Made by a program: the position numbers and the translations under genes. From NCBI GenBank assembly GCA_963728565.1, contig CAVSLC010000010.1, positions 32,001-96,000 on the forward strand: a stretch of 64,000 nucleotides of DNA. Reading direction: 5' to 3'. Shown one piece after another: positions 1 to 64,000 of the stretch. Source of the stretch: an uncultured delta proteobacterium (lineage in GTDB: Bacteria > Desulfobacterota > Binatia > UBA9968). The notes beneath the pieces were generated by a model. The model worked only from the letters and a program-made list of their open reading frames with translations. It did no database searches and was not told the DNA's origin. Within the stretch, counting starts at the first letter, position 1; each line of letters opens with the position of its first letter.

Positions 1-1681
1 GTGACCGGAGGTCGGCGATATTGCCGCTGGCGAGTCCGGATAGTTCGAGGGAACCCGAACCTTGCTGATTTGCTAAAGCGAGCCAGGGCGTCAGATTCGC
101 TGACCGCACAACATAATCGAGCCTGCCGCTTTGTTTTGTCTCCAGACCGACGTCGCCCTTCACTGTAAGAATCGAATCCTCCGTTCTGGCAGTTGCGAGG
201 ATAATCTGAAGCCGCTGCTGCGCCAGACTGGCTACGAGAGAACCTTGTTGCACCTTCACCGGCCCAATCGTAGACGGCAAAATTTTCAGCTCGGTGCGGA
301 CGATGACGTCATGCTGGGTGAGTCCGGCCCCTTTGAGGGTGCCTTTAAAATTGAGGTTTCCCTCGAGGCCAGCTGCACCGCTCACGGTTTTTTGGATATC
401 AAGGTTATCTACCGATAGCGCCAGATCGTACGCCGGTTTATCTTTGAAAGAGATCTCGCCGTTCCATGAGGCGCCGCCGATCTTGCTCTTGAGTCTTCCG
501 GCGATGGTGGCCACGTTTTCGCGCAGGCGGCCGTCGATCGAAATATCTCCCAAGGTCCATCCACCAACCACCGCAGATTGCATCTTGATCACGCCTTTGG
601 CATCGACACCGGAAAGCTCAAGACCACTGGCTTGGCCTTCGATGCTGGCGTTCAGAACCCCCGCCACATCGTTCCTGCCGAGTAACGTCCTTACATCAAA
701 GCCGGTTAAGGTTATCGTTCCACGATAGCGCGGCGTCTCCTGCGCGGTTTCGATCTGGAGGCTCGCCGCCAACCTGGCGCTCGCCGCGGCTAGATTGAGA
801 TCGACGACCAGCGCATCGAGCGGTCCGTTGATGCTGATGGCCCCAGCGACATCTCGTCTAAGCGGCCAGTCGGCAAAGAAACGGCCAATGTCGTGCGGGG
901 CAAGCCTTTCCACGGCGATTTTCGCGTCCACGTTAACGGCCTGGAGATCGGTGAGTTTGCCGCTCACTCTCGCGTGCGACTCTCCCGTGCTTACCAGAAG
1001 ATTCGCTACTTCAAACGTGTCGGTACCGGCGGTCTCATGGTAGACCATCGCTCCATTTACGCTGAGTTCCGGCAGGCCCGGCGTACTAAGGCGCGATGCA
1101 ACGCGGCTGAGGTCGATGGTGACGTTTTTGGGTTGAACATGGATCCGGCCTTCGAGACTCAGGTCATCGAGAGAATAGTTTTGTGGTTTTGGACCCGCAA
1201 GGCTCAGATCGACATGTCCCTCGCGCAAGGCAATTGAATTCAACAGCACCACGAGCCCGGAATCTTCCTCGCTCTGTGGCTGTCTTGGGGAAAAAGCTTG
1301 CACGATGTTCAGCTGATTATCTTCATCACGTCTCAAACGAAGCGTCGGCCGGCTGCCTGTGAGTTGAAAAATGTGCAAGCGACCCCATATCAGTGGGAAT
1401 AGTGAGTAGGAAATCGTCAGTTCGTGCACCTCGAGAATCTCAGCGCCCTCGTGACGTACGACGACATCATGCAGAATAACATTGCCCCAGATAGAGCCGT
1501 CGATTCCGCCTAAACTTATGGAGCCCACGATCGTATCGTTGATCGCCGTCACCAGTTTATCGCGGACAAATTCACGAAACCGATCGGTGTGAGAAATGGC
1601 TGCTACCGCAATGACGAGGATGAGCAGCAAAAACGCGAGCCCAAGACCGATTCGACGGATGATGGCCAGTACCCTTCTCAT
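1..1681 (-). CDS. tamB: TamB/AsmA-like translocation and assembly module protein (5' part; runs off window edge)
   Basis: Manual translation from ATG 1681: MRRVLAIIRRIGLGLAFLLLILVIAVAA (signal anchor), then beta-rich repeats. Frame is open to the edge and starts 2 bp after the TamA-like gene. Confidence 0.8.
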   Translation of the reverse strand, partial: MRRVLAIIRRIGLGLAFLLLILVIAVAAISHTDRFREFVRDKLVTAINDTIVGSISLGGIDGSIWGNVILHDVVVRHEGAEILEVHELTISYSLFPLIWGRLHIFQLTGSRPTLRLRRDEDNQLNIVQAFSPRQPQSEEDSGLVVLLNSIALREGHVDLSLAGPKPQNYSLDDLSLEGRIHVQPKNVTIDLSRVASRLSTPGLPELSVNGAMVYHETAGTDTFEVANLLVSTGESHARVSGKLTDLQAVNVDAKIAVERLAPHDIGRFFADWPLRRDVAGAISINGPLDALVVDLNLAAASARLAASLQIETAQETPRYRGTITLTGFDVRTLLGRNDVAGVLNASIEGQASGLELSGVDAKGVIKMQSAVVGGWTLGDISIDGRLRENVATIAGRLKSKIGGASWNGEISFKDKPAYDLALSVDNLDIQKTVSGAAGLEGNLNFKGTLKGAGLTQHDVIVRTELKILPSTIGPVKVQQGSLVASLAQQRLQIILATARTEDSILTVKGDVGLETKQSGRLDYVVRSANLTPWLALANQQGSGSLELSGLASGNIADLRS

Positions 1682-26888: not shown

Positions 26889-29041
26889 ATGAACGAAATT
26901 ATTCGCTTGCCCGATGAATTCTACATCCTTGCGACAGCATCCGCTGCAGAGGAGTCCCGAGTCCTAAAGATGGGCGAGAGCTTTGGAATTTTCGACCGCT
27001 ACGGCGATATTCTTCAGTATGGCTTAGGCGAACAAGGAATCTATCACGAGGGAACACGGTTCCTCTCTTATCTTGAACTTCGCATGGGAAACATCCGCCC
27101 TTTTCTACTGAGCTCGATGATCAAAGAAGACAACATTCTCTTCACCGTCGATTCGACCAACCCCGATGTTTACGTCGACGGCACGATCGCGCTGCGCCGC
27201 GGTGATGTGCATCTATATCGCTCAAAATTCATCTGGCAGGCAGTCTGTTATGAACGGCTGCAACTGGTCAACTATAGCCTGTTGCCCATCGAAATTTCTT
27301 TTGCGATTCGCTTCGACGCCGATTTTGCCGACATTTTCGAAGTGCGCGGCGTCAAAAGAGAAAAGCGAGGGACGCGCCTGGTGGATGAGACTCGACAAGG
27401 ATCGCGCGATGCTGAGCTATCTTGGCCTGGACGACATCGTTCGCCAAACAATCATCGAGTTTTCTCCAGCCCCGGAGAAGCTGGCGCCTGGTGAAGCGAC
27501 CTTTCACAGAATTCTCGATCCTAAAAAACCCGAGGCGTTTTTAGTCTCGTACGCGTGCAAATCGAAACGCTCTGTTCCGGTTCGCCGCCCCGTAGAGCTG
27601 GCGCTGAAACAAGCCGAACAAGCGCTAGCTGCCTACAAAGCGGAGGAGTGCCAAGTCCGCACGTCGAATCATGAGTTCAACGGCTGGCTCGACCGCTCCT
27701 ACGCCGATATTCATATGATGATTACCGACGGCCAAGATCTTTATCCGTACGCGGGAGTGCCGTGGTTCAGCACGGTGTTCGGCCGGGATGGGATTATTAC
27801 GTCGTGGGAGCTTTTATGGATTTTCCCCCGGGTCGCGCGCGGCGTGCTGCGTTACTTGGCGGAGACGCAAGCGACGGAAGTTATCTCCGAGCGCGACGCC
27901 GAACCCGGAAAGATTCTGCACGAGATGCGCCTGGGAGAAATGGCCAGCTTGGGTGAAATTCCTTTTGACCGCTACTACGGCAGCACCGACAGTACGCCTT
28001 TGTTCGTTATGCTGGCGGGTGCTTACGTCACTCGCACGAACGATGTTGAATTCGCTCGCTGGATCTGGCCGCACGTGAGGCGCGCGCTGCACTGGATTGA
28101 AGAGTACGGTGACGTCGACGGCGATGGCTTTGTCGAAACGTTGCGCCGCTCATCGCATGGGTTGGTGCAGCAAGGCTGGAAAGATTCGTGGGACTCCGTT
28201 TTTCATCAAGACGGAACTCTCACCGAGGCGCCACTGGCGCTGTGTGAGGTTCAGGGTTACGTGTACGCCGCCAAACTTGCGGCGGCAGGAATCGCGACGC
28301 TCCTCGGCCATAGCGACGAAGCCGTGAGGCTTGTCAGTGAGGCCGAGCGACTCAAAGAGCAATTTCAACCAAGTGTTTTGGTGTGACGAGCTTTCGATCT
28401 ACGCGTTGGCGCTCGATCAAGCAAAGCGTCCTTGCAAGGTGCGAGCATCGAACGCCGGCCATTGCCTGTTTGCCGGTATTGCTACGGATGAGTATGCGTT
28501 GCGTACTGCAAGCACGTTGATGAGCGAAGATTTTTTTTCCGGCTGGGGAATCCGGACATTATCGACCAACGAAGTGCGTTACAACCCGATGTCCTACCAT
28601 AATGGATCGATTTGGCCGCACGATAATGCCGTGATCGCAGCCGGCTTTGCTCGTTATGGTTTGAAAGAACCGATATCCACGGTGATCACCGGACTGTTCG
28701 AGGCCAGCCTCTACTTTGAAATGCATCGTTTGCCCGAGCTTTTCTGCGGTTTTCCGAGACGCGAAGGTGAAGGGCCGACCCTGTATCCGGTTGCCTGCGC
28801 GCCGCAAGCGTGGGCGGCCGGCTCGGTCTTTTTAATGCTGCAAGCGTGTTTGGGACTCTCGGTCCATGCGAGCGATGCGAAGATTTACTTCGACTCGCCT
28901 GTGCTGCCCGAGTGCATCAATGAGATATACTTGAAGAACCTGCGGGTCGATTCGTCACTACTCGACTTAGTAGTCGATCGTTCCTTTCAAGGCATTGGAA
29001 TTGAGCGCCGCCAGGGCGACGCCAGCATTGTGATCAGTTGA
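26889..29041 (+). CDS. Amylo-alpha-1,6-glucosidase / glycogen debranching enzyme (two frameshifts, ~27390 and ~28362)
   Basis: Three overlapping ORFs join up: DFADIFEVRG; YAGVPWFSTVFGRD, EPGKILHEMR, QGWKDS; SYHNGSIWPHDN, RLPELFCG, YPVACAPQAWA. Confidence 0.9.
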
Positions 29042-30061
29042 AGCTTTGATCACGCGGCGGTAGACGCTGAGGTAATCTTGCGCCATACGAGAGGCGCTAA
29101 AACGTTCTTCGAAAACCCGGCGACAGCGCCGGCGGTCAAAAGCCGGAATCTTACGAAGCGCCTGAAGGGCGCCTTCGATGTCGTCGACGATGTAACCTGT
29201 GATGCCCTCCTGGATCAACTCCGGTACCGAGCCACGCCGAAACGCAATAATCGGAGTGCCGCATGCCATCGCTTCGATAATCACCAGGCCGAAAGGTTCC
29301 GGCCAATCGATCGGAAACAGCAAGGCATAAGCGTTCGCGAGAAATTCTTTTTTGTCCTTGTCGCCGATCTCGCCGATAAATTCCGCCGACGAATTGCTCA
29401 AGATGGGTCTGATCACCTGTTCCATGTAATTACGATCGGCGGCATCGGTCTTGGCGGCAATGCGAAGTCTCATGCCCGAACGAGCGGCGATTTCGATTGC
29501 GCGATCTAGCCGTTTTTCCGGTGAGATTCGTCCAACGAACGCGAGATAATTCCCGGGTTTCTCACCGCAATCATAAAGCTCCAGAGGCAAGCCATGATAG
29601 ATCGTCTGTTGCCAGTTGGCGCGGGGCAGAGGTGTGCGTTGCGCATTCGAGATCGATACAACTGGCATTTCGCTGAATTTTTTGTACACGGGCATCAGGT
29701 CGGCAAGATCAAGCCGGCCATGCAGGGTGGTCACGTGCGGAACCGAGTATCGACGCGCTAGCGGGAAATGAAGGTAATCGGTATGAAAGTGGATGATGTC
29801 AAAACGGGACGCTCTCTCGAAAACCTCTTCGAGCATAACATAGTGATGAGCAAGCGGGTCGAACACATTGTCGAGACGCAGGGCTCGCTTGCGCGCCGCT
29901 ATGAGTTGCGCCGCAGTGACCGAATCGCCGCTGGCGAAGAGCGTGACCTCGTGTCCCTGCGCCACCAACTCCTCGGTCAGGTAAGAAACGATCCGTTCAG
30001 TGCCGCCATAAGTTCGCGGCGGCACACTTTCATAAAGAGGCGAGACCTGCGCGATTTTCAT
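28967..30061 (-). CDS. GT4 glycosyltransferase
   Basis: VPPRTYGGTERIV, GRISPEK, WPEPFGLVIIEAMACGTP. Confidence 0.93.
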   Translation of the reverse strand: MKIAQVSPLYESVPPRTYGGTERIVSYLTEELVAQGHEVTLFASGDSVTAAQLIAARKRALRLDNVFDPLAHHYVMLEEVFERASRFDIIHFHTDYLHFPLARRYSVPHVTTLHGRLDLADLMPVYKKFSEMPVVSISNAQRTPLPRANWQQTIYHGLPLELYDCGEKPGNYLAFVGRISPEKRLDRAIEIAARSGMRLRIAAKTDAADRNYMEQVIRPILSNSSAEFIGEIGDKDKKEFLANAYALLFPIDWPEPFGLVIIEAMACGTPIIAFRRGSVPELIQEGITGYIVDDIEGALQALRKIPAFDRRRCRRVFEERFSASRMAQDYLSVYRRVIKASTDHNAGVALAALNSNALKGTIDY

Positions 30062-30165
30062 TCGGGATCCTTAAAAAAAGCGCCGACAACGATGCTAGGG
30101 GCAGATTTGATTGCGGCGGAAACTTTAAATCAAGTAAATCGAAGACGCGGATAATTTGTTATTAC

Positions 30166-31420: not shown

Positions 31421-33347
31421 ATGAATGGCTTAGAACTTCCCACGGTTCTCAACGTCGATGACAACGAAGCGCGGCGCTACGCCAAGAGCCGCATCCTCAA
31501 ACGCGGCGGATATCAGGTGATCGAGTCGGAGACCAGCGCCGAGGCATTGCGGGTTGTCAAGGAGTTTCAACCGAGTCTTGTACTGCTCGATGTCAAGTTG
31601 CCCGATACCAGCGGCTTTGCAGTCTGCGAAGCGATTAAAGCAGACCCGGCAACCGCGCACATTATGGTTCTGCAAATTTCGGCTATGTACCTTAGCCCGG
31701 AGGATCGGGCTATTGGCTTGGAGCGCGGCGCTGACACGTATTTGACCGAGCCGGTTGAACCCGCGGAACTTCTAGGCGCGACAAAGGCGTTGTTGCGTCT
31801 CTACGTACGCGATCAAGAGAAACGCTTTCTCCTTGATCAACTTCGCGAGGCTAATCGTCAAAATGCGGCGCAGCTGGCGGAACTCAATTCTATCTATGCA
31901 ACAGCTCCGGTGGGTCTCGCCGTACTAGATACCGAGTTGCGTTATATCCGGGTAAACGATTTGCTCGCGGAGAAGAATGGTATACCGGCCGACCAACACG
32001 TCGGTCGAACCGTCCGCGAAATAAATCCTAGCATCGCCGGCGCGGTCGAAACAGTGTGCCGGGAATTGATAGTTACAGGAAAACCTCGTCTCAATGTTCA
32101 GATGATAGGCGAGACTGGCGCGCAACCCGGTGTCAAGGGAACATGGCTAAACAGCTATTTCCCATTAAAGGATCTAAATGGCGAGTGTATCGGGGTCAAT
32201 GTAGTGATTCAGGATCTCACCGATCAAAAACAACTGGAAGCGAGATTGCGCGAGGCTGACAAACGGAAGGACAAGTTTTTAGCCGTACTCGGGCATGAGT
32301 GGCGCAATCCTTTAGGCGTCATCATCAATGCCTTTGAGATGCTGCCCGTTTCGGATACACCGGAAGCGCGAGAAATCAGGGCTATCATCAAGCGGCAGAT
32401 CACTCGCATGACACATCTTACTAACGACCTGCTCGACGTTTCGCGGATCTCAGCCGGGCAGATTGAAATTGATAAACAGTCCTGCGATTTCGCGGCGATT
32501 GTGCGCGAAGCAGCGGAGGACTATCGAGGGATCCTAGGCTCCGTCGGCATCCGCCTCGCGCTGCAGCTGCCGCAGGATCCTGTCTGGGTCCTAGGGGATT
32601 GCAGACGTTTGGGACAGGCGGTTGGAAATCTCTTGCACAATAGCCAGAAGTTCACGCCACCGGGACGGCACGGTGACCATGACCCTAGCCATCGTTCCGA
32701 ATCAAGAAACAGCTGTTCTCAAGGTTCGTGATACCGGGATCGGCATGGATGAGAGCACGCTGACCCGATTGTTCGAGCCATTCAGCCAGGTATTGCGAAC
32801 TTTCGATCGTAGCCGCGGCGGACTCGGCTTGGGTCTGACTTTAGTCAAGGCATTCATTGAAATGCACGGTGGGACGGTATCGGCGAGCAGTAAGGGACCT
32901 GGAAAGGGTTCAGAGTTCATCGTTCGGTTGCCGGTCCAGAGGGATCCTACCGCGCCGCGCGATCCCAATCCTGAATCGAGCGCTTCTCAATCGAAGGATC
33001 CAATCTCATGCCGTGTTCTCATTATCGACGACAATCAGGTTGGAGCTCGAGCCATGCAATTGTTCCTTCAAGATGCTGGCCACCTGGTCGAGATAGCCCA
33101 TAACGGAGTCGAAGCGTTCGTGATCGCGAGAAACCTGAGACCCGATGTCGTGCTCTGCGACATTGCGCTACCCTGGATGGATGGCTACGCGATTGCGCGG
33201 ACGATCCGGCAAGACGCCCAGCTCAAAAATGTTTATCTGATCGCGATCTCGGGGTACGCACAGGACGAGGACCAGCAATTGGCGAAACAGGCCGGTTTTG
33301 ACGAATACTGCGTCAAGCCGGTTGATCTAAAATCCTCGACCGGATGA
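31421..33347 (+). CDS. Hybrid histidine kinase REC-PAS-HisKA-HATPase-REC (frameshift ~32662; C-terminus possibly also shifted)
   Basis: VLNVDD..LLDVKLPD, PAS, GHEWRNPL, NLLHNSQKFT / DTGIGM, GLGLGL, second REC CDIALPWMDG..VKP. Confidence 0.88.
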
Positions 33348-54629: not shown

Positions 54630-55743
54630 ATGGCTAGAATCCTCATCACCGGCGGAGCTGGATTTATTGGATCTCATTTAGCCGACGAGCTTCTGCACCA
54701 TGGTCATGCCGTCAAAGTACTTCGATCTCCTGTGCTCGCAAGTGCATGGCGCGGGAAAGCAAACGCCTGAATATTTGAATTCTGGTGTCGAACTCGTGCT
54801 TGGCGATGTGCGCGACCGCGCTGCGGTTCAGCGGGCGTTGCAGGGAGTTGACGCGGTCTATCATTTTGCCGCGGCGGTCGGCGTCGGCCAGAGCATGTAC
54901 GAGATCGAGCATTATGCCAGTATCAACGATATCGGCACCGCGGTGCTCCTCGAAGCGCTCATCAAACGTCCAGTCGAACGGCTGATCGTCGCGTCGAGTA
55001 TGAGCGTCTACGGCGAAGGACTTTATCGTTCGCGCCGTGGAAATATTCATAGTGCCGTCGAGCGCAGCCCGACGCAGCTGCGTTCCGCTCGTTGGGATCC
55101 GTTGGATGACGAAGGCGCGGCTCTAGAACCGATCCCCACGCCGGAGACCAAGACGCCGGCGCTCAGTTCGGTTTATGCGCTGTCGAAGTATGTTCAGGAA
55201 CGGATGTGCCTGATGATCGGCCGCGCCTACAATATTTCCACCGTCGCCCTGCGTTTTTTCAACGTGTACGGACCACGCCAGGCGCTATCGAACCCGTATA
55301 CCGGTGTTCTGGCAATTTTCGCCTCTCGTTTGCTCAACGGCAAAGCGCCACTGATTTTTGAGGATGGCGAACAACAACGGGACTTCGTCAATGTCAGAGA
55401 TGTGGTGCAGGCCTGCCGATTGTCTCTCGACGCCGCGGCAGCGCCGGACAACGTTTTCAACATCGGCAGCGGTCAGGCCTTTACTATTTCCGAGTTAGCT
55501 GAACGGATGGCCGACGCACTCGGGAAAAATCTCGAGCCGCAAATCACCGGTAAATATCGCATGGGTGACATACGCCACTGTTTTGCCGATATCGCGCTTG
55601 CCAGGTCGATCCTCGGCTACGCACCCCGGGTAGCGCTCGAAGATGGTGTCATGGAGCTTGCCGAGTGGCTCGAAGGGCAGATTGCCAACGATCACGTCGA
55701 TAGCGCCAGCGCCGAACTGGCAGCTCGAGGATTGACTCTGTGA
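54630..55743 (+). CDS. NAD-dependent sugar epimerase/dehydratase (frameshift ~54722)
   Basis: ATG 54630 [16 protein letters not shown] joins the ORF with [20 protein letters not shown]. Confidence 0.9.
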
Positions 55744-57932
55744 AGAAGGCGAGGGCCGGTCGAAACGGAGCGGCAGGCATCAAGGCAGATGTCTGCAAGC
55801 ATCCCAGTTTGCGCGCCCAAATCGCCGAAGCCGACAGTGGCGCCGGCGTCCGGATCGGAGTCGTCGAAAGCTTTCGCATCGGCGATCGCGCCGGGGTGGA
55901 AAACGTTCTTGCCGATCTACACGCATTGAGAGTCGCCGACCTCCGTACCACGATATCGTGGGCCGATTGGGACAGCGCCGAAGGCGCAGCCTGGTACAGC
56001 TGGCTCTTGCCGTATTTAGCTAGGCAAGTGAATGTGATTCCGTGCGTGCTCTACACGCCGTTATCGCAGGCGGTGGCGCCGCGTGTGTCCGCGCCGCCTT
56101 GGGATCCCAAGGCCTACGGCGACTTTATCGACGTGCTGATCACCCGTTTGGGCAGCTGTTTTGAATGGATCGAGCTATGGAACGAGCCCGATCGATTGAG
56201 CGAATGGGATCGCACCCTCGATCCGCACTGGCAAACATTCTGCGCCATGATCGGCGGCGCCGCTTATTGGGCGCAGCGCCGCGGCAAGCGCACATTGCTT
56301 GCCGGGCTCAATGCGTTCGACCCTAACTGGCTCGAATTGATGTTCCGGCGCGGCGTGATGCAGTACATCGATGCCGTCGGCATCCATGGATTTCCGGGCA
56401 CCTCTGAAGCCAATTGGGAGAGTTGGCCGGGGGTGGTTCAGAGCGTGCAGCAGATTTTGACGCAGCACCGTTCCGGCGCTGAAATCTGGATCAGCGCCAC
56501 CGGATATTCCACTTGGCGCCACGACGAGTACGAGCAATTGCGCGCCTTCGCCCGGGCTCTGGAAGCGCCGGTGGAGCGACTTTACTGGCTCGGGGCGCGC
56601 GATCTCGACCCGGAATTTTCCACACGCGATGGCTTTCATGCCGACGATCGGGATTATCATTTCGGGCTGCGCCGCAGCGACGGTAGCGAGAAATTACTGG
56701 CGCGACTGTGGGGTGAGGGCGGACTGGACGCGGTCTGTGAAGCGCTCGAACCGCATTCGGGCGCGCGCCGCAGCGCCGCCAAGCCGACACAACCGGTGGT
56801 CATCACCGGCGGCGCCGGTTTTATCGGCACCAATTTGGCGCATCGCCTGGCGAGCGACGGCGAGCGGGTTTTGGTGTTCGATAACTTGTCACGCCCAGGT
56901 GTTGAGCGCAATTTGAGATGGTTGTTGGAAACCCACGCAAAGCGAGTCCAGGTGGAGTTTGCCGACGTGCGCAATCCTTACGCGCTGCGCCGCGCGGTGC
57001 GTAATGCCAAACAGGTATTTCATTTCGCGGCGCAAGTCGCGGTCACCACCAGCTTGGCCAACCCGCGCCACGATTTTGACGTCAACGCGCTTGGAACACT
57101 CAACTTGCTCGAAGCGTTACGCGGCGCCGATGACCCGGCGCCGCTAATATTTACCTCGACCAATAAAGTCTATGGCGGCCTGGACGATGTCCGACTGAGC
57201 TGTGAAGAAGGCGCTTATCACCCGCTCGATCCGTTTTTGCGCGAGCATGGGATCAACGAATCGCGGCCGCTGGATCTGCACAGCCCTTACGGCTGCTCCA
57301 AGGGAGCCGCCGACGAGTACGTCATCGACTACGCCCGAACCTTCGGACTCCCTGCGGCGGTGTTTCGCATGAGCTGCATCTATGGCCCGCATCAAATGGG
57401 CAACGAAGATCAGGGATGGGTGGCGCACTTCTTAATCTGCGCGCTCGAAGACCGCCCGCTGACGCTCTACGGCGACGGCATGCAGGTGCGTGACGTGCTT
57501 TATATCGACGACTTGGTAGAAGCCTTTTTGGCGGCGCGCTCGCAGATGCGCAACATTTCCGGGCAGGCTTTCAACATGGGCGGCGGGCCGCGGCGCGCGC
57601 TGAGCCTTTTAGAGCTCATCGACATGATCGTCGAGCTTCATGGCGAAAGCCCGGCCTGCGAAAGCAGCGACTGGCGCGCCGGAGACCAGCGTTACTATGT
57701 TTCCGATACCCGCAAGTTTCAGAACGCAACCGGTTGGGCGCCGCGCGTCGATCCCGAAGAAGGCGTGCAGAAACTTTATGAATGGTTGCGCCGCGCCCGC
57801 GGCCTGGAACAAGTTCGCGCTCTCGGCGGCGCCTCCCGCAACGGCTCGTTCAGACGGAAAACTGGAATGAGAAGCGGCCTGGTCGCGCAAGATCGACAAG
57901 AACGAGCGGGCAAGGCCTCGCAGCCCTATTGA
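55740..57932 (+). CDS. Fusion of GH-A clan barrel and CDP-tyvelose-epimerase-like extended SDR
   Basis: N-half ELWNEP, DAVGIHGFP, IWISATG; C-half [36 protein letters not shown]. Confidence 0.85.
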   Translation: MKKARAGRNGAAGIKADVCKHPSLRAQIAEADSGAGVRIGVVESFRIGDRAGVENVLADLHALRVADLRTTISWADWDSAEGAAWYSWLLPYLARQVNVIPCVLYTPLSQAVAPRVSAPPWDPKAYGDFIDVLITRLGSCFEWIELWNEPDRLSEWDRTLDPHWQTFCAMIGGAAYWAQRRGKRTLLAGLNAFDPNWLELMFRRGVMQYIDAVGIHGFPGTSEANWESWPGVVQSVQQILTQHRSGAEIWISATGYSTWRHDEYEQLRAFARALEAPVERLYWLGARDLDPEFSTRDGFHADDRDYHFGLRRSDGSEKLLARLWGEGGLDAVCEALEPHSGARRSAAKPTQPVVITGGAGFIGTNLAHRLASDGERVLVFDNLSRPGVERNLRWLLETHAKRVQVEFADVRNPYALRRAVRNAKQVFHFAAQVAVTTSLANPRHDFDVNALGTLNLLEALRGADDPAPLIFTSTNKVYGGLDDVRLSCEEGAYHPLDPFLREHGINESRPLDLHSPYGCSKGAADEYVIDYARTFGLPAAVFRMSCIYGPHQMGNEDQGWVAHFLICALEDRPLTLYGDGMQVRDVLYIDDLVEAFLAARSQMRNISGQAFNMGGGPRRALSLLELIDMIVELHGESPACESSDWRAGDQRYYVSDTRKFQNATGWAPRVDPEEGVQKLYEWLRRARGLEQVRALGGASRNGSFRRKTGMRSGLVAQDRQERAGKASQPY

Positions 57933-57935
57933 CCC

Positions 57936-58940
57936 ATGACGCTCGACCATTCTAATCGCCGGACCATGCGCGCGGCACGAATCGTCGCGCCGCGGCAGGT
58001 CGAAATCGATGAAATCGCGGTGCCCGAACCGGGTGCCGGCGAAGTGCGGATTCAAGTGGATGGTTGCGGCGTCTGCGGATCGAACTTATCGCTGTGGCGC
58101 GGCCAGCCCTGGTTTCACTACCCGATCGAACCGGGCGCGCCCGGTCACGAGGGATGGGGGCGGGTTGATCAGGTCGGGGAGCAGGTCGATAGCGTCCGGC
58201 CCGGAGAGCGGGTTGCATTCGTATCCAACCGAGCTTACGCCGAGTACGACATCGCCCGCGCCGACAGCCTGGTGCGCGTTCCTGCAAGCACTGAAATATT
58301 CCCGGGCGAGGCATTGGGCTGCGCGATGAATATTTTTCAGCGCTGCGGCATCGAGCCGGAGCAGACGGTCGCGGTTGTCGGGATCGGATTTTTGGGCGCG
58401 CTCCTGATCCAGCTTGCGGTTGCTGCGGGCGCGCAGGTTCTCGCTATTTCGCGCCGCCCGTTCGCGTTGCAGGTGGCGCGCCGCTACGGCGCTGCAGAGG
58501 CGCTGGCTAGTAGCGATTCGACGGCGGTGATTGCGCGGATCATGGAACGGACCGATGGATCGGGCTGCCCGCGTGTCATCGAAGCCGCCGGCCAGCAGGA
58601 GACGCTCGACCTGGCAAGCGAGCTCGTCGGTATTCGCGGCCGGCTGGTGATTGCGGGCTATCATCAGGACGCGCCGCGCCGGGTGAATATGCAGCTTTGG
58701 AACTGGCGCGGCATCGATGTCATCAACGCTCACGAGCGCGATCCGGGCCGCTATGTCGCAGGGATGAAAGCGGCGGCCGAGCGGGTGGCGCAAGGGGCGC
58801 TGAAGACCGAATCTCTCTACACTCACGGTTTTCCACTCGAGAACATCAGCGCCGCATTTGCCGCGCTCGACGAGCGGCCGGAAGGATTTCTAAAAGCATG
58901 GATACAACCGCGCCCCAATCAGGCGAGCGTCCAAGAATGA
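57936..58940 (+). CDS. Zinc-binding (MDR) sugar/polyol dehydrogenase
   Basis: [22 protein letters not shown]. Confidence 0.9.
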
Positions 58941-60061
58941 GCAACAGAAAAGTGAGAGTGGCCGTCATCGGCGTCGGAAACTGCGCCTCGTCCCTGGTTC
59001 AGGGAGTGCAATTTTACAAAAGCGCCGATCCCAATCAATTTGTGCCCGGGCTGATGCACGTGAGCCTGGGCGGCTATCACGTGCGCGATGTCGAATTCAG
59101 CGCCGCGTTCGATATCGATAGCAACAAAGTGGGCAAGGACCTGTCGGAGGCGATTTTCGCCGAACCGAACAACACCTACCGCTTTAGCGATGTGCCGCGC
59201 AGCGGCGTAGAAGTTCGGCGCGGCATGACCCATGACGGTCTCGGCAAATACCTGAGCCAAAAAATCCGCAAGGCGCCGGGCTCGACCAGCGATATCGTCG
59301 GAACGCTGCGTTCCACACGCACTGACGTGGTTGTCTCTTACCTGCCGGTGGGTTCCGAGATGGCGACCAAGTGGTACGTCGAGCAGATCCTCGAAGCCGG
59401 ATGCGCGTTCGTCAATTGCATACCGGTATTCATCGCCTCACAGCCCTATTGGCGCAAGCGCTTTAAAGAACGCGGCCTGCCGATCATCGGCGACGACATC
59501 AAATCGCAACTCGGCGCGACGATTACGCACCGGATGCTGGCGAACCTGTTTCGCGAGCGCGGCGTACGCCTGGACCGAACCTATCAACTGAATTTCGGCG
59601 GCAACACCGACTTCCTCAACATGCTCGAACGCGAGCGGCTGGAATCGAAAAAAATTTCCAAAACCAACGCGGTGACCAGCCAGCTCGATTACCCGATGTC
59701 GAGCGATGATGCGCATGTCGGTCCGAGCGACTACGTGCCGTGGCTGCACGACCGCAAGTGGTGCTACATCCGCTTGGAAGGCACCACCTTCGGCAACGTG
59801 CCGCTCAACTGCGAGGTGAAGCTCGAAGTTTGGGATTCGCCCAATTCTGCGGGCGTCGTGATCGACGCGGTGCGCTGCGCCAAACTGGCCCTCGACCGCG
59901 GTATGGGCGGCGCCGTGATCGGCCCGTCGAGTTACTTTATGAAATCGCCGCCGCAGCAATTTACCGATAATGAAGCGCGCGAGCGCACCGAAGCATTCAT
60001 TCGCAATCATCAATCGACGACCGTCAGAGCAACGCCGCGGCCGGTCAGAAAGCGAGCTTGA
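58937..60061 (+). CDS. ino1: myo-inositol-1(3)-phosphate synthase
   Basis: [58 protein letters not shown]. Confidence 0.95.
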
Positions 60062-60120
60062 CGACGCCGCATGAGCGAATCCTCAAGCGTGCGATCCGGA
60101 ATACTGGGAATGGCGGAGAC

Positions 60121-61245
60121 ATGAAGCTGGTTATTTTTGGCCTGACGATCAGCTCGTCTTGGGGCAACGGCCATGCTACGGTTTGGCGCGGCTTGTGTCG
60201 GGAGTTGGCGCGCCTGGGGCACCAGGTGATTTTTTTCGAAAAGAACGTTGCCTATTATGCGGCGCACCGCGATTTTCACGACATTCCCGGCGGCAAGCTC
60301 ATTCTTTATGAGACCTGGAGCGAAGCGCTCTCCCACGCCCGGCAGCATCTGGCCGATGCGGAGGTGGCGATCGTCACGTCCTATTGCCCCGACGGGATGG
60401 CCGCTACCGAGGTCGTTGTCAGCTCGCGGCCGTTGAGGGTCTTCTATGATCTCGACACCCCGGTGACTTTGGAACGGATCGCAGCCGGCCATGGCGTCGG
60501 TTACATCGGCGCTTCGGGATTGCGCGATTTTGACATCGTCTTGAGTTTTACCGGCGGGCGCGCGCTGCTGGACCTCCGGAGCCGGCTCGGCGCCAAGCGG
60601 GCGGTGGCGCTTTACGGCAGTGTTGATCCCGCTGTCCATCGACCGGTAATGGCGCGGGAAAGCTACCGCGCCGACTTGTCGTATATCGGCACTTACGCCG
60701 ATGATCGCCAAGCAATGCTCGACGCGCTCTTTCTCGAGCCGGCGCGGCGCCTGCCGGAGCGGCGTTTTTTAATCGCCGGAGCGCAATACCCGCCGGCCTT
60801 CGCTTGGCTGCAAAACCTTTTTTTCGTGCGCCACATCGCGCCGCCGGATCATCCGGCGCTTTACTCGTCATCACGCCTGACTCTCAACGTCACCCGTCGC
60901 GCCATGGCGCAGTCAGGCTATTGCCCGTCCGGGCGACTCTTCGAAGCTGCGGCATGCGGCACGCCCATCGTCACCGACTGTTGGGCCGGTCTGGAAAGCT
61001 TTTTTCAACCGGGCGAAGAGATCCTCGTAGCGACTCAAACTGCCGATGTTATGGCAGCGTTGGAATTGAGCGATGATCAACTGGCGCGCATTGCCGGGCG
61101 CGCGCGGCAACGCGCTATCGAGGAGCATTGCGCCGCCAGAAGGGCGCGGCAACTCGAAGCCATCCTCGATAGCGTTGCGGCTGATGGGCCGGAGCCGCTT
61201 GCGGGCGCAGCAGAAAATTGCCGTGTCCTGCGGGGAGAAGCCTGA
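60121..61245 (+). CDS. CgeB-family glycosyltransferase
   Basis: SSSWGNGHATVWRGL, YDLDTPVT, LNVTR..M..SGYCPSGRLFEAAACG. Confidence 0.88.
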   Translation: MKLVIFGLTISSSWGNGHATVWRGLCRELARLGHQVIFFEKNVAYYAAHRDFHDIPGGKLILYETWSEALSHARQHLADAEVAIVTSYCPDGMAATEVVVSSRPLRVFYDLDTPVTLERIAAGHGVGYIGASGLRDFDIVLSFTGGRALLDLRSRLGAKRAVALYGSVDPAVHRPVMARESYRADLSYIGTYADDRQAMLDALFLEPARRLPERRFLIAGAQYPPAFAWLQNLFFVRHIAPPDHPALYSSSRLTLNVTRRAMAQSGYCPSGRLFEAAACGTPIVTDCWAGLESFFQPGEEILVATQTADVMAALELSDDQLARIAGRARQRAIEEHCAARRARQLEAILDSVAADGPEPLAGAAENCRVLRGEA

Positions 61246-61247
61246 GA

Positions 61248-62003
61248 ATGTGGGGAATCATTCCGGCCGCCGGTGCCGGCCGCCGAATTCAACCGCTGGC
61301 GTTTTCTAAAGAACTGCTGCCGGTAGGGAGCCGCTTCGATGGCGAGACCGAGCGGCCTCGGGCGGTCAGCGAATACATTATGGAACGCATGGTTCGGGCC
61401 GGCGCCAGCCGAATCTGCTTCATTATCTCGCCCGGCAAATGTGACATTCTCGAATACTACGGCGCCAGCTTCGGGCCTGCGCGTTTGTGTTATGTTGTGC
61501 AGCCCCAGGCGTCGGGTTTGTGCGACGCGCTGTTCTGCGCGCTGCCGCTAATCGGCGCCGATGACCCGGTGATGATCGGCCTGCCCGATACCATCTGGTT
61601 TCCAGAAGATGGTTTCTGCTCACTACCGCGCGATGCTTTAGCGTTTCTGCTTTTTCCCGTGAGCCGTCCAGAATTGTTCGACGCCGTTCTGACCGACGAA
61701 GTGGGTCGCGTGCGCCAGATTCGGGTCAAGTCGCGTGAGCCGTTATCGCAGTGGGTGTGGGGCGCCTTCCAGATGCCCGGTTCTGTCATGATCAAGCTGC
61801 ATGAGTTGTGGTGCCGGCGCGGTCGCGCCGACGAGTACGTAGGCACTCTGGTCAATGCCTATCTCGGCGAAGGCGGTCAGGCATGGGGCATCCGCGCCGG
61901 CAGCGCTTATGTCGATGTTGGCACTCTGTACGGTTACCGGGAAGCGATCCGGCTGCTCAGCGGTTCCGAGCAGCGCTCAGAACTTCAGGAGATCAAAGCG
62001 TGA
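61248..62003 (+). CDS. Sugar-phosphate nucleotidyltransferase (RmlA-like)
   Basis: GIIPAAGAGRRIQPLAFSKELLPVG, GLPDTIW, YVDVGT. Confidence 0.9.
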   Translation: MWGIIPAAGAGRRIQPLAFSKELLPVGSRFDGETERPRAVSEYIMERMVRAGASRICFIISPGKCDILEYYGASFGPARLCYVVQPQASGLCDALFCALPLIGADDPVMIGLPDTIWFPEDGFCSLPRDALAFLLFPVSRPELFDAVLTDEVGRVRQIRVKSREPLSQWVWGAFQMPGSVMIKLHELWCRRGRADEYVGTLVNAYLGEGGQAWGIRAGSAYVDVGTLYGYREAIRLLSGSEQRSELQEIKA

Positions 62004-62779
62004 ATCGGCTTGCGGTTCCTCGGCGGAAGATGACCCGCGATGAAATCGAAACTCAAGTGCGCCGGCTCGGCCCCTGGTTTCACAACCTCGATCTGGCGGG
62101 CGTGCAGACCGCCCCGGAGCATTTTCTTGGAGATTACCCGCGCGTGAAGTGGCAACGCTTTGCCCACGCGATCCCCGACAATCTCGCGGACAAAACGGTT
62201 CTCGACATCGGTTGCAATGGCGGCTTTTACTCCATCGAGATGAAACGCCGTGGCGCGGCGCGGGTGGTCGGCATCGATTCGGACGATGACTATTTGCTTC
62301 AGGCGCGCCTGGCCGCGGAGATCTGCGGCGTTGACATCGAGCTCCGCAAGCTTTCGGTCTACGATGTCGGCGCGCTGGCGGAGAAGTTCGATGTCGTGCT
62401 CTTCATGGGCGTTCTCTATCATCTGCGCCACCCGCTGCTGGCTCTGGATTTGATTCGCCGACATGTGGCCAAGGATTTGTTCGTCTTTCAATCGATGCAA
62501 CGTGGCAGCAATGAAGTCGCCTCTCTGGAGGACGACTATGAATTCTGGAACGAGGATATTTTCGAGAAGCCCGGGTTCCCGCGCTTGTGCTTCATCGAAA
62601 AAAAATACTCCGGCGATCCGACCAACTGGTGGGTGCCCAATCGCGCCTGCAGCGAGGCGATGCTGCGCAGCGCCGGTTTCACCATCGAAGCCAATCCCGA
62701 AGCCGAAGTGTACGTCTGCCGGTGCGCGGCAATCACTGCTGGCGGCCGTCACTGGCCCGGCGAAATAAAGGAGCCCTAA
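62000..62779 (+). CDS. SAM-dependent methyltransferase (TIGR04290-like)
   Basis: LGPWFHN, HFLGDYP, VLDIGCNGG, FMGVLYHLRHP, DPTNWW; start at GTG 62000 or ATG 62030. Confidence 0.88.
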   Translation: MNRLAVPRRKMTRDEIETQVRRLGPWFHNLDLAGVQTAPEHFLGDYPRVKWQRFAHAIPDNLADKTVLDIGCNGGFYSIEMKRRGAARVVGIDSDDDYLLQARLAAEICGVDIELRKLSVYDVGALAEKFDVVLFMGVLYHLRHPLLALDLIRRHVAKDLFVFQSMQRGSNEVASLEDDYEFWNEDIFEKPGFPRLCFIEKKYSGDPTNWWVPNRACSEAMLRSAGFTIEANPEAEVYVCRCAAITAGGRHWPGEIKEP

Positions 62780-63810
62780 TGGTCGAAGCGGTAATGTTTT
62801 GGAACGAGCCTAACAACAAATCACATTGGGATTTTTCGCTCGATCCGGAGTGGCGTGTCTATGGCGAAATGGTCAAGCTGGCGGCGGCCGCCGTAACGGC
62901 TGAAAATCCCCGGCTTGTCCGGGTGCTCGGCGGCATTTCTCCCATAGACGCCGCTTTCATCCTCAATATGCAGTCACAGCACGTGCTCGAAAGTCTCGAC
63001 GCAGTGGCGGTTCATGGTTTTCCGCTGGATTGGAATCACTGGAATATTCATGAGTGGCCGGCAAAGCTCGATGAGATTCGCGCGGTGACGGATTTGCCGA
63101 TCTGGGTTTCAGAAGTCGGCGTCTCGAGCTTCGGCGCCGAAGAAGTTCAGGAGTGGGGCTTGCAGCGCACCGCCGATCTGCTGATCGGCCGCGCCCCGCG
63201 GATACACTGGTATAGCCTTTATGATCTGCCGCGCGCGTGGCCGGCCACGACACGCCATCGCGAGGCCGAGGGCTCATCATACTACCGCCACTTTTACATG
63301 GGACTGCTTCATGAGGACGGCACGCCCAAGCTGGCGCTCAAACATTTTCCGCCGTACACGCCCGAGCTCGGCATCTGCCAATGGTTTCATTTCGAGGATT
63401 ACCGGCTGGATCAAGCGGTGCGCTGGCTGCGCACACTGAATGTTCGTTATCTACGTACCGGCTTGAGCTGGTCAGACAGCCTGCGCCCGGGAGCCATGGA
63501 ATGGTTTGACCGGCAGATGCGCGCTCTCGAGGAGTTCGATGTCACTTTGACGATGTGCTTTACGCCGGAATCGCGCGGGGTCCAGCCGCACCATACCAGC
63601 CCGCCGCAGCGCGCCGAGGAGTTCGCCGATTTCTGCGCGCGTATGGTGCATCGTTACAGCTCGGCAGCAACGGCAACGAATGAATCGACCAGAAAGAAAT
63701 CCACTGCGGAGGGTGACTCATGGCCAGTAGAAGCCAATCCAGAACCGCCACCGACCACGACGAAATCCGTCAATGGGTCGAAGCCCGCGGCGGACGCCCC
63801 GCGGTCGTGA
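62779..63810 (+). CDS. GH39-like ('beta-xylosidase') barrel, circularly permuted
   Basis: AAGGAG RBS; begins [13 protein letters not shown]; has HGFP, WVSEVG, HWYSLYD; ends with LRTGLSW..CFTP..SPP segment. Confidence 0.82.
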
Positions 63811-64000
63811 AAAGCACCCGCGGCCGAGGGAATGATAGCGGAATTCTGGGCAGCGATTTTCCCGGTTACAGCGGCTCCGTTCCGGGGAGGAAATCTCGTG
63901 GGAGGAATTCTTCGAACAATTCCATCAAGAAAAACTCGCCCGGTGTATCAGGACACCACCGCGCGGGGGCAGAAGAGTAGTTTCCACAAGATCGTCAGCC
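63720..64000 (+). CDS. Conserved small stress-cluster protein (frameshifted, truncated at edge)
   Basis: [26 protein letters not shown], then in other frames [33 protein letters not shown]. Confidence 0.7.

Follow-up and report, generated by a model that had tools for sequence, protein, structure and literature searches.

Here, we describe cpGH, a predicted glycoside hydrolase (GH) of the clan GH-A type (4/7 superfamily, GH39-like) whose (β/α)8 barrel is very probably a natural circular permutation that begins with β4 and ends with β3. Its gene (P0001) lies on a 64,000-nucleotide stretch of DNA from an uncultured bacterium of the Binatia (positions 32,001 to 96,000 of contig CAVSLC010000010.1, assembly GCA_963728565.1), hereafter called the window. 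It belongs to a single operon of tightly packed plus-strand genes (54.6-63.8 kb of the window), which also encodes a second, unpermuted GH-A-like barrel as the N-terminal part of a fusion protein (P0002). We refer to the β1-β3 part of such a barrel as segment A and to the β4-β8 part as segment B, so that the fusion protein has the order A-B and cpGH the order B-A.

The exchanged order is apparent from a direct BLASTP comparison of the two proteins, in which residues 3-185 of cpGH align with residues 142-319 of the fusion protein (27% identity, E 1e-17) and residues 197-296 with residues 39-140 (25% identity, E 6e-7). A first-pass annotation, made from the DNA sequence alone, had read the two barrels as circular permutations of each other and had predicted two offset diagonals in a dot plot, which are the diagonals obtained here; the sequence motifs and positions it gave for both proteins are likewise as it described them. 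It had named a lack of significant similarity in segment A as grounds for rejecting the idea, but segment A of cpGH matches the fusion protein of the window and its orthologue at locus L002 with E-values of about 2e-7 and 18 other unpermuted relatives with E-values of 1e-14 to 6e-22. The swapped order is also found against a solved structure. The best match in the PDB for a profile of 18 cpGH homologues is the GH39 enzyme PslG, which aligns in two swapped pieces (profile residues 200-296 with chain residues 25-131 and profile residues 3-190 with chain residues 132-328) that meet at a break between chain residues 131 and 132. A control profile, built from nine unpermuted relatives, is colinear with PslG in a single stretch (residues 6-300 with 21-330, E 6e-14), followed in the list of PDB matches by GH39 xylosidases (about 1e-3) and GH1 enzymes.

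A barrel that begins at the strand leading to the W-N-E-P motif would be a trivial result of a misplaced start codon if β1 to β3 were encoded further upstream, as the first-pass annotation had itself acknowledged. The start codon of cpGH (ATG at 62779) is, however, secure on the basis of the surrounding sequence. It is preceded at a distance of 5 nt by an AAGGAG ribosome-binding box and overlaps the stop codon of the upstream methyltransferase gene by one base (TAATG). The alternative start at 62587, the limit of the only in-frame extension, was rejected; it adds 64 arginine-rich residues whose codons lie out of frame in the methyltransferase gene, and an extension that is this short and this unlike β1-β3 cannot supply the missing strands. 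Homologues share the same termini: 15 of the 18 aligned sequences, which derive from several phyla, begin with M-[IV]-E-A-[VI]-M-[FL]-W-N-E-P and the other three with MFWNEP, while the conserved part ends with M-[VT]-R-R-Y-A in all 18. In the 198 permuted proteins surveyed, segment B is preceded by a median of zero residues. The cut lies just before the W-N-E-P strand, and neither of the two refuting conditions named in the first-pass annotation holds.

The AlphaFold2 model of cpGH, computed from a 29-row alignment, has a mean predicted local distance difference test score (pLDDT) of 84.0, a predicted template modelling score (pTM) of 0.80 and 227 residues at pLDDT>=90. It contains eight consecutive strands, each followed by a helix, of which the last spans residues 279-294. 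A shallower alignment of 18 rows with low diversity gave the same topology at a mean pLDDT of 69.6, and it was the addition of diverged members that raised the value to 84.0. According to this model, β4-α4 to β8-α8 would come first, a linker of about ten residues would bridge the old termini, and β1-α1-β2-α2-β3-α3 would follow. The cut in the α3/β4 loop severs no secondary-structure element, as judged by the consensus of unpermuted relatives in this region (Y-A-D-F-I-D-x-M-I-T-R-F-G-x-x-F-E-W-x-E-L-W-N-E-P). In TIM barrels, such a cut and the new joint both sit on the face opposite the active site, and the catalytic face of cpGH should therefore have remained unchanged. Foldseek searches of the PDB returned only TIM barrels among the matches examined. 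Those to clan GH-A enzymes (GH39, 5jvk; GH2, 6lej) cover 205-208 columns at a root-mean-square deviation of 4.7-4.9, which is about the length of segment B, and whole-length matches are to unrelated barrels only, at a deviation of about 10. Since Foldseek aligns sequentially, half-length matches to clan GH-A are expected for a permuted barrel, although they do not prove it.

Given that the fold of cpGH is a predicted one, and that part-barrels are able to assemble between chains, as studies of half-barrels have established, the two segments could also be conceived as separate part-barrels of five and three β-α units that complete each other between the subunits of a swapped oligomer. We give this arrangement very little credence, because the monomer is modelled confidently with all eight units in succession and because a short, conserved linker (Y-T-P-x-L-G) is what one expects of a joint within a single chain.

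The permuted order is a property of a very large family. In a word-indexed search, at least 8000 candidates were scored, all with E-values of 1e-3 or lower; the best 120 of these are 279-368 residues long and 71-95% identical to cpGH. A scan of genomes confirmed 597 of 600 matched stretches and thus at least 597 loci. The 80 loci kept for context counts, 66-96% identical at the cpGH gene, derive from Binatia, Verrucomicrobiota, Acidobacteriota, Myxococcota (including complete Sorangium genomes), Gemmatimonadota, Bacteroidota, Nitrospirota, Proteobacteria and others. We classified the architecture of all 299 retrieved proteins by separate searches with the two segments. In 198 proteins the order was B-A and in 19 it was A-B; 74 proteins showed only segment B and eight only segment A (fragments); no tandem was detected. 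All 198 two-segment members of the family to which cpGH itself belongs are permuted. The possibility that cpGH is an artefact of mis-assembly, truncation or erroneous gene calling in an error-prone assembly has some appeal in a region where two other genes, the first epimerase gene and the small gene that follows cpGH, are frameshifted. We nevertheless regard it as negligible, as architecture, termini and length are the same in hundreds of independent assemblies, among them the complete genome of Sorangium cellulosum So ce56, and as the copy in the window is intact and 96% identical to its counterpart in the closest genome record (L001).

Some further properties of the family were noted in passing. 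Averaged over alignment columns, identity among 18 sequences from several phyla is 71%, which is unusually high for an accessory enzyme, and two loops (residues 149-172 and 262-276, the latter with TPESRGxxPHHTSPP) are nearly invariant; it is in the former that the model is least confident. Natural fusions join cpGH to a C-terminal PIG-L deacetylase, an N-terminal TIGR04290-type methyltransferase, myo-inositol-3-phosphate synthase (MIPS) or a pyruvyl transferase domain (P0273-P0277, P0280, P0281, P0278, P0283, P0284, P0279). Three representatives of 444-505 residues (P0124, P0134, P0142) were considered as possible tandems and rejected, as they appear to result from frameshifted read-through out of the methyltransferase gene upstream.

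Hydrolases of clan GH-A carry an acid/base Glu within an Asn-Glu motif at the end of strand 4 and a nucleophilic Glu at the end of strand 7. Both are present in cpGH, with Glu10 in N9-E10-P11 as predicted acid/base and Glu112 in W-V-S-E-V-G as predicted nucleophile, and the (β/α)8 fold is present in the predicted model. The canonical β1-to-β8 order is absent from cpGH and instead all eight units occur cyclically shifted and fixed in the family, as in a permuted TIM barrel. In 132 full-length permuted proteins, N9, E112 and W144 are invariant and E10, H79 and R226 are each conserved in 131. The retention of Glu10 and Glu112 suggests that cpGH is most likely still an active retaining glycosidase or transglycosidase, and the lack of a signal peptide that it is probably cytoplasmic.

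Several observations weigh against this interpretation of cpGH as a permuted clan GH-A enzyme. Closure of the barrel rests on a predicted model and the order of its secondary-structure elements, in which the conserved loop residues 156-167 have a pLDDT <50. The match between the cpGH profile and PslG is weak overall (E 3e-4), with independent E-values of 0.47 and 5.4 for the single pieces. Family assignment by established models is likewise poor: the Pfam model PF11790 (Glyco_hydro_cc) reaches 17.6 bits, below its cut-off of 21, and covers only residues 3-121; PF01229 (GH39) has no match to cpGH at E<=0.01; NCBIfam gives no match either; and the public name 'beta-xylosidase' of cpGH homologues is automatic. 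Some homologues do carry a precomputed PF11790 label, and the nearest PDB relatives are nevertheless GH39 enzymes, with PslG matched at the above E-values by the permuted and, far more strongly, by the unpermuted profile. ESM Atlas contained no model of cpGH and only generic names. The absence of a Pfam or NCBIfam assignment, together with the half-length structural matches, implies that the family is under-detected and that thousands of genes bear a doubtful 'beta-xylosidase' label. On balance, a permuted barrel with the anatomy described above remains very probable.

The unpermuted barrel in the same operon differs from cpGH in more than its order. Its domain has the canonical β1-to-β8 order and retains the acid/base motif (N148-E149-P150), but the nucleophile is replaced by Ala253, in W-I-S-A-T-G where relatives have W-I-T-E-A-G. 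The second half of the fusion is an SDR epimerase/dehydratase, identified by its matches to PF01370 and PF16363 and by a Rossmann GxxGxxG motif; TGGAGFIG is invariant in the alignment of fusions, and the SDR domain reaches no NCBIfam equivalog cut-off. P0002 is a member of a family of such fusions with 655-703 residues (P0286-P0297, P0259), found, e.g., in Microcoleus and Balneolaceae and publicly named 'GDP-mannose 4,6-dehydratase' or 'CDP-paratose 2-epimerase'. All 13 aligned fusions keep W-N-E-P. At the nucleophile position, ten have Glu, one has Gln, and the copies of the window and L002 (3622-5814 of that locus) have Ala. A partial copy at locus L065 (1-720) reads WNRP and ITATG and has thus lost the acid/base as well. 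Between the window and L002, the GH-like domain has a ratio of non-synonymous to synonymous substitution rates (dN/dS) of 0.057, the SDR domain one of 0.076 and cpGH, whose dS is close to saturation, one of 0.059. By this measure, the GH-like domain is maintained under purifying selection, and the combination of Ala253 with low dN/dS suggests that it is probably a non-hydrolytic sugar-binding or otherwise altered module. A point missed in the first-pass annotation is that, with one of them lacking the nucleophile, the two barrels are not equivalent hydrolases, and that it is the permuted one that is common and strongly conserved.

How the permutation arose can be addressed by phylogeny. We aligned segments A and B separately and calculated an IQ-TREE phylogeny of 40 rows, leaving out the fragmentary sequences P0125, P0160, P0201 and P0246. 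The 21 permuted and the 19 unpermuted rows fall on either side of one branch with 100/100 support, a split that implies one change. The GH-like domain of the window and its L002 orthologue share a long stem (0.58 changes per column) within a clade of the 13 glycosidase-epimerase fusions (98/92). Stand-alone unpermuted relatives (P0192, P0207, P0241, P0246, P0260, P0269, P0270) are 34-41% identical to cpGH over segment B and are closer to it than the paralogue in the operon, at 25-27%. As far as the sequences tell, the permutation has a single, ancient origin and has become fixed throughout a very large and unusually conserved family; the single 100/100 branch indicates one ancient event and not a local duplication. 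The tree is unrooted, and a change from the canonical to the permuted order is inferred because PslG and other GH-A enzymes are canonical. No tandem or partial-tandem (A-B-A-B) intermediate was present among the 299 proteins or among 27 longer matches, which are fusions to PIG-L, methyltransferase, MIPS, pyruvyl transferase or epimerase.

The earlier annotation had gone further and proposed that cpGH originated when the unpermuted gene next to it was duplicated and trimmed, and that the two products might form a heterodimer. Both genes do stand in one operon and are homologous over both segments, and textbook accounts of circular permutation start from a tandem duplication that is subsequently trimmed. 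Yet the two copies share only 25-27% identity while other unpermuted proteins are closer, the fusion domain nests in a separate clade across the 100/100 branch from all permuted forms, and no tandem form was detected in either set of proteins. Moreover, the unpermuted paralogue accompanies cpGH in only three of 80 loci (L002, L029 and L065, the last cut by a contig end); in the other 77, the best match of the paralogue query was cpGH itself, with many loci so short that absence is not always certain. There is no positive evidence for a heterodimer, and a predicted complex of cpGH residues 1-298 with residues 30-335 of the fusion (score 0.00, mark 0.32) was run without controls and counts neither way. 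A nearby origin with heterodimer formation is therefore highly improbable. What stands of the paralogue interpretation is the juxtaposition of a permuted barrel with an unpermuted paralogue; what finds no support is the nearby duplication and the heterodimer. For the ancient event, general considerations still make duplication and trimming the likeliest route. The N-terminal domain of the fusion is instead a distant paralogue from a separate clade of fusions that lost its nucleophile in the lineage of the window and probably serves as a binding or altered module.

The genes around cpGH in the window are listed in Table 1. Members of the family normally have a TIGR04290 methyltransferase, a nucleotidyltransferase, Glyco_trans_1_2 glycosyltransferases and MIPS as neighbours, and often a PIG-L/LmbE deacetylase. 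Among the 80 loci, the gene directly upstream is a methyltransferase in 48, a nucleotidyltransferase in 15, MIPS in eight and a glycosyltransferase in one, with none of the tested genes in the remaining eight. Within 4 kb upstream and on the same strand, a Glyco_trans_1_2 gene occurs in 56, a nucleotidyltransferase in 50 and MIPS in 26 of the 80 loci. PIG-L is located directly downstream in 23 of the 70 loci with room for it and is fused to cpGH in seven of the 27 longer matches. Pfam scans of four loci revealed fuller clusters, with several Glyco_trans_1_2 and GT4 genes and a PIG-L/LmbE deacetylase gene after cpGH. Loci L009 (11225-15744) and L015 (11093-16962) add GT4, an Acetyltransf_6 GNAT and a histidine phosphatase, and L009 also a GFO/IDH/MocA oxidoreductase, while in L069 (10761-13494) PIG-L/LmbE follows cpGH and a histidine phosphatase gene lies further downstream. 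Judged by its gene content, the cluster appears to serve the synthesis of an inositol or sugar-nucleotide glycoconjugate.

It is conceivable that cpGH is instead an ordinary catabolic beta-xylosidase in an incidental neighbourhood, as the automatic names and the GH39 beta-xylosidases among the PDB relatives of the unpermuted forms might imply. However, it has no signal peptide and no carbohydrate-uptake context, and its neighbours are consistently biosynthetic (glycosyltransferases, nucleotidyltransferase, methyltransferase, MIPS). It is naturally fused to PIG-L deacetylase, methyltransferase and MIPS, its nearest solved relative is the biosynthesis-associated PslG and not XynB, and the Pfam model of GH39 has no match, all of which makes a catabolic role very unlikely. 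We propose that cpGH might have a cytoplasmic trimming or transfer (transglycosidase) role in the synthesis of an inositol-containing glycoconjugate, in analogy to the service of PslG in Psl synthesis. This biosynthetic role is a tentative suggestion to which we assign somewhat less than even chances. What speaks against it in this organism is that no PIG-L, GNAT, phosphatase or GFO homologue was detected in the window at E<=1e-3, and the absence of PIG-L, GNAT and histidine phosphatase makes the pathway inference less secure here. It is tempting to combine these elements into one picture, in which cpGH would represent a new CAZy-level family and the first permuted barrel of clan GH-A, acting as a cytoplasmic biosynthetic transglycosidase or trimming enzyme on a methylated inositol glycoconjugate of many soil and freshwater phyla, with the pseudo-glycosidase fused to an epimerase, in the lineage of the window, binding and presenting the sugar substrate as a natural glycosynthase-like or binding module. 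As a whole, this picture is speculative and we consider it doubtful.

Table 1. Features of the cpGH operon in the window and of the cpGH model
Feature	Position (nt)	Residues	Strand	Remarks
SDR epimerase, first gene of the operon	54632..55743		+	Frameshifted ~30 codons in
Fusion gene P0002: unpermuted GH-like barrel, then SDR sugar-nucleotide epimerase/dehydratase	55740..57932	730 in total	+	
P0002, segment A	55854..56159	39-140	+	
P0002, segment B	56163..56696	142-319	+	WNEP 147-150; Glu149 codon 56184-56186
P0002, Ala253 codon GCC	56496..56498	253	+	Nucleophile position
P0002, SDR epimerase/dehydratase domain	56796..57794	353-685	+	PF01370 4.9e-48; PF16363 4.3e-47
Zn-dependent alcohol dehydrogenase family gene	57936..58940		+	Pfam/NCBIfam matches
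MIPS gene	58937..60061		+	PF01658 7.6e-37; TIGR03450 549 bits, below cut-off 638
Glyco_trans_1_2 glycosyltransferase-like gene	60058..61245		+	PF13524 7e-38; likely start ATG 60121
Sugar-phosphate nucleotidyltransferase family gene	61248..62003		+	Pfam/NCBIfam matches
TIGR04290-family methyltransferase gene	about 62030..62779		+	383 bits, cut-off 300; stop overlaps cpGH start by one base
cpGH gene (P0001), permuted GH-A/GH39-like (β/α)8 barrel	62779..63810	343 in total	+	Barrel, residues 1-296
cpGH, segment B (β4-α4 through β8-α8)	62779..63348	1-190	+	Matches fusion 142-319, PslG chain 132-328
cpGH, Glu10 codon (W-N-E-P)	62806..62808	10	+	Predicted acid/base; aligns with Glu of PslG WNEPN (E165)
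cpGH, Glu112 codon (W-V-S-E-V-G)	63112..63114	112	+	Predicted nucleophile; aligns with Glu of PslG WSTEWG (E276)
cpGH, linker from old C-terminus (after α8) to old N-terminus (before β1, LGICQWF)	63334..63366	~186-196	+	
cpGH, segment A (β1-α1-β2-α2-β3-α3)	63355..63666	193-296	+	Matches fusion 39-140, PslG chain 25-131
cpGH, low-complexity C-terminal tail	63667..63807	297-343	+	Outside barrel; variable among homologues; pLDDT <50; overlaps next small gene
cpGH model, β4		2-7		
cpGH model, β5		47-53		
cpGH model, β6		75-80		
cpGH model, β7		108-113		
cpGH model, β8		142-145		
cpGH model, β1		197-200		
cpGH model, β2		224-230		
cpGH model, β3		254-260		

Other features of the operon deserve brief mention. 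The closest genome record, L001, is a Candidatus Binatia metagenome-assembled contig in which the neighbours of cpGH are 94-99% identical to those of the window. The dehydrogenase gene has its best NCBIfam match, a weak one far under the cut-off, to scyllo-inosose 3-dehydrogenase IolM. In the first epimerase gene (at 54632-54760), the Rossmann N-terminus is in the frame of 54632 and the remainder in the frame of 54700; compared with the intact 371-residue orthologue of L002, there is one extra base near 54724-54727, which makes the gene either a pseudogene or the product of a sequencing indel. The small conserved gene after cpGH (63720-64000) has its conserved pieces spread over three frames, with indels of +1, +2 and -1 bases relative to the intact L001 copy. 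It has no Pfam or NCBIfam match, and its start overlaps the disordered cpGH tail by 90 nt. A GT4-type glycosyltransferase homologue is encoded far from the operon (29024-30064, minus strand) and shares 30% identity with the GT4 found after PIG-L in L009. G+C content is 0.59-0.62 over 52-64 kb compared to 0.52-0.58 further upstream in the window, and cluster proteins are 55-80% identical between different phyla; both observations would fit horizontal spread of the cluster.

A literature search aimed at permuted barrels of clan GH-A or family GH39, at TIGR04290 and at the present cluster found no paper describing any of them, within a full-text collection that leaves most subscription journals outside; the only text match for 'circularly permuted' together with 'GH39' was discarded, as it refers to PgaB (CE4) in a reference list. 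Few natural circular permutations of TIM barrels are known, and the textbook case among glycosidases is GH70 versus GH13. The cpGH family would add a natural permutation in the other big glycosidase clan, of relevance for protein evolution and the classification of carbohydrate enzymes. The large conserved set of permuted proteins, together with unpermuted relatives at 34-41% identity, could provide a system for studying barrel folding and the tolerance of new termini, and the widespread conserved cluster around cpGH is itself worth characterising.

With MIPS, GT4, PIG-L/LmbE, GNAT and histidine phosphatase genes, cpGH clusters recall what we take to be the logic of glucosamine-inositol pathways, i.e., MshA/MshB of mycothiol and PIG-L of glycosylphosphatidylinositol synthesis. 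To our knowledge, mycothiol synthesis involves no glycosidase, and the window differs from these pathways in that it lacks PIG-L, GNAT and phosphatase genes. Among the closer relatives of cpGH, the stand-alone unpermuted proteins have both segments in recognisable form and share the NEP and TE[VT]G motifs, but have the A-B order and much longer branches. The fusions of a GH-like and an SDR domain have the same domain order as P0002, which is 46-62% identical to members of this family and 85% identical to its L002 orthologue; the window and L002 copies stand apart by their long stem and by Ala where 10 of 13 fusions have Glu.

Among solved structures, PslG of Pseudomonas aeruginosa (GH39, PDB 5bx9/4zn2) is matched best by the permuted and by the unpermuted profile alike. 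Like cpGH, it is a clan GH-A barrel, and its catalytic Glu residues align with Glu10 and Glu112 (PslG numbering was derived from the alignment with a chain offset of 26). Unlike cpGH, it has the canonical β1-to-β8 order, and similarity to the permuted profile is remote. According to PMC6813494, E165 and E276 are catalytic and needed for Psl production, and PslG, whose gene belongs to an operon for glycan biosynthesis, aids that synthesis by its hydrolytic activity and localizes to the inner membrane and the periplasm. PslG further has an N-terminal transmembrane domain (PMC10485009).

The relation of GH70 to GH13 (clan GH-H) is the nearest precedent for the architecture of cpGH, as it is also a natural permutation of a glycosidase TIM barrel that keeps its catalytic motifs and is cut at nearly the same place. 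The barrel of GH70 runs α3-β4...β8-α8-β1...β3, as given in PMC11046441. It is thus cut between β3 and α3, whereas cpGH is cut one element later, between α3 and β4, a proximity suggestive of a break point that barrels favour. Even so, cpGH is not itself a member of GH70. The two differ in clan and in catalytic machinery, Asp/Glu/Asp in GH70 and Glu/Glu in cpGH, and while GH70 enzymes are large, extracellular and multidomain, cpGH is a single domain of about 295 residues without a signal peptide.

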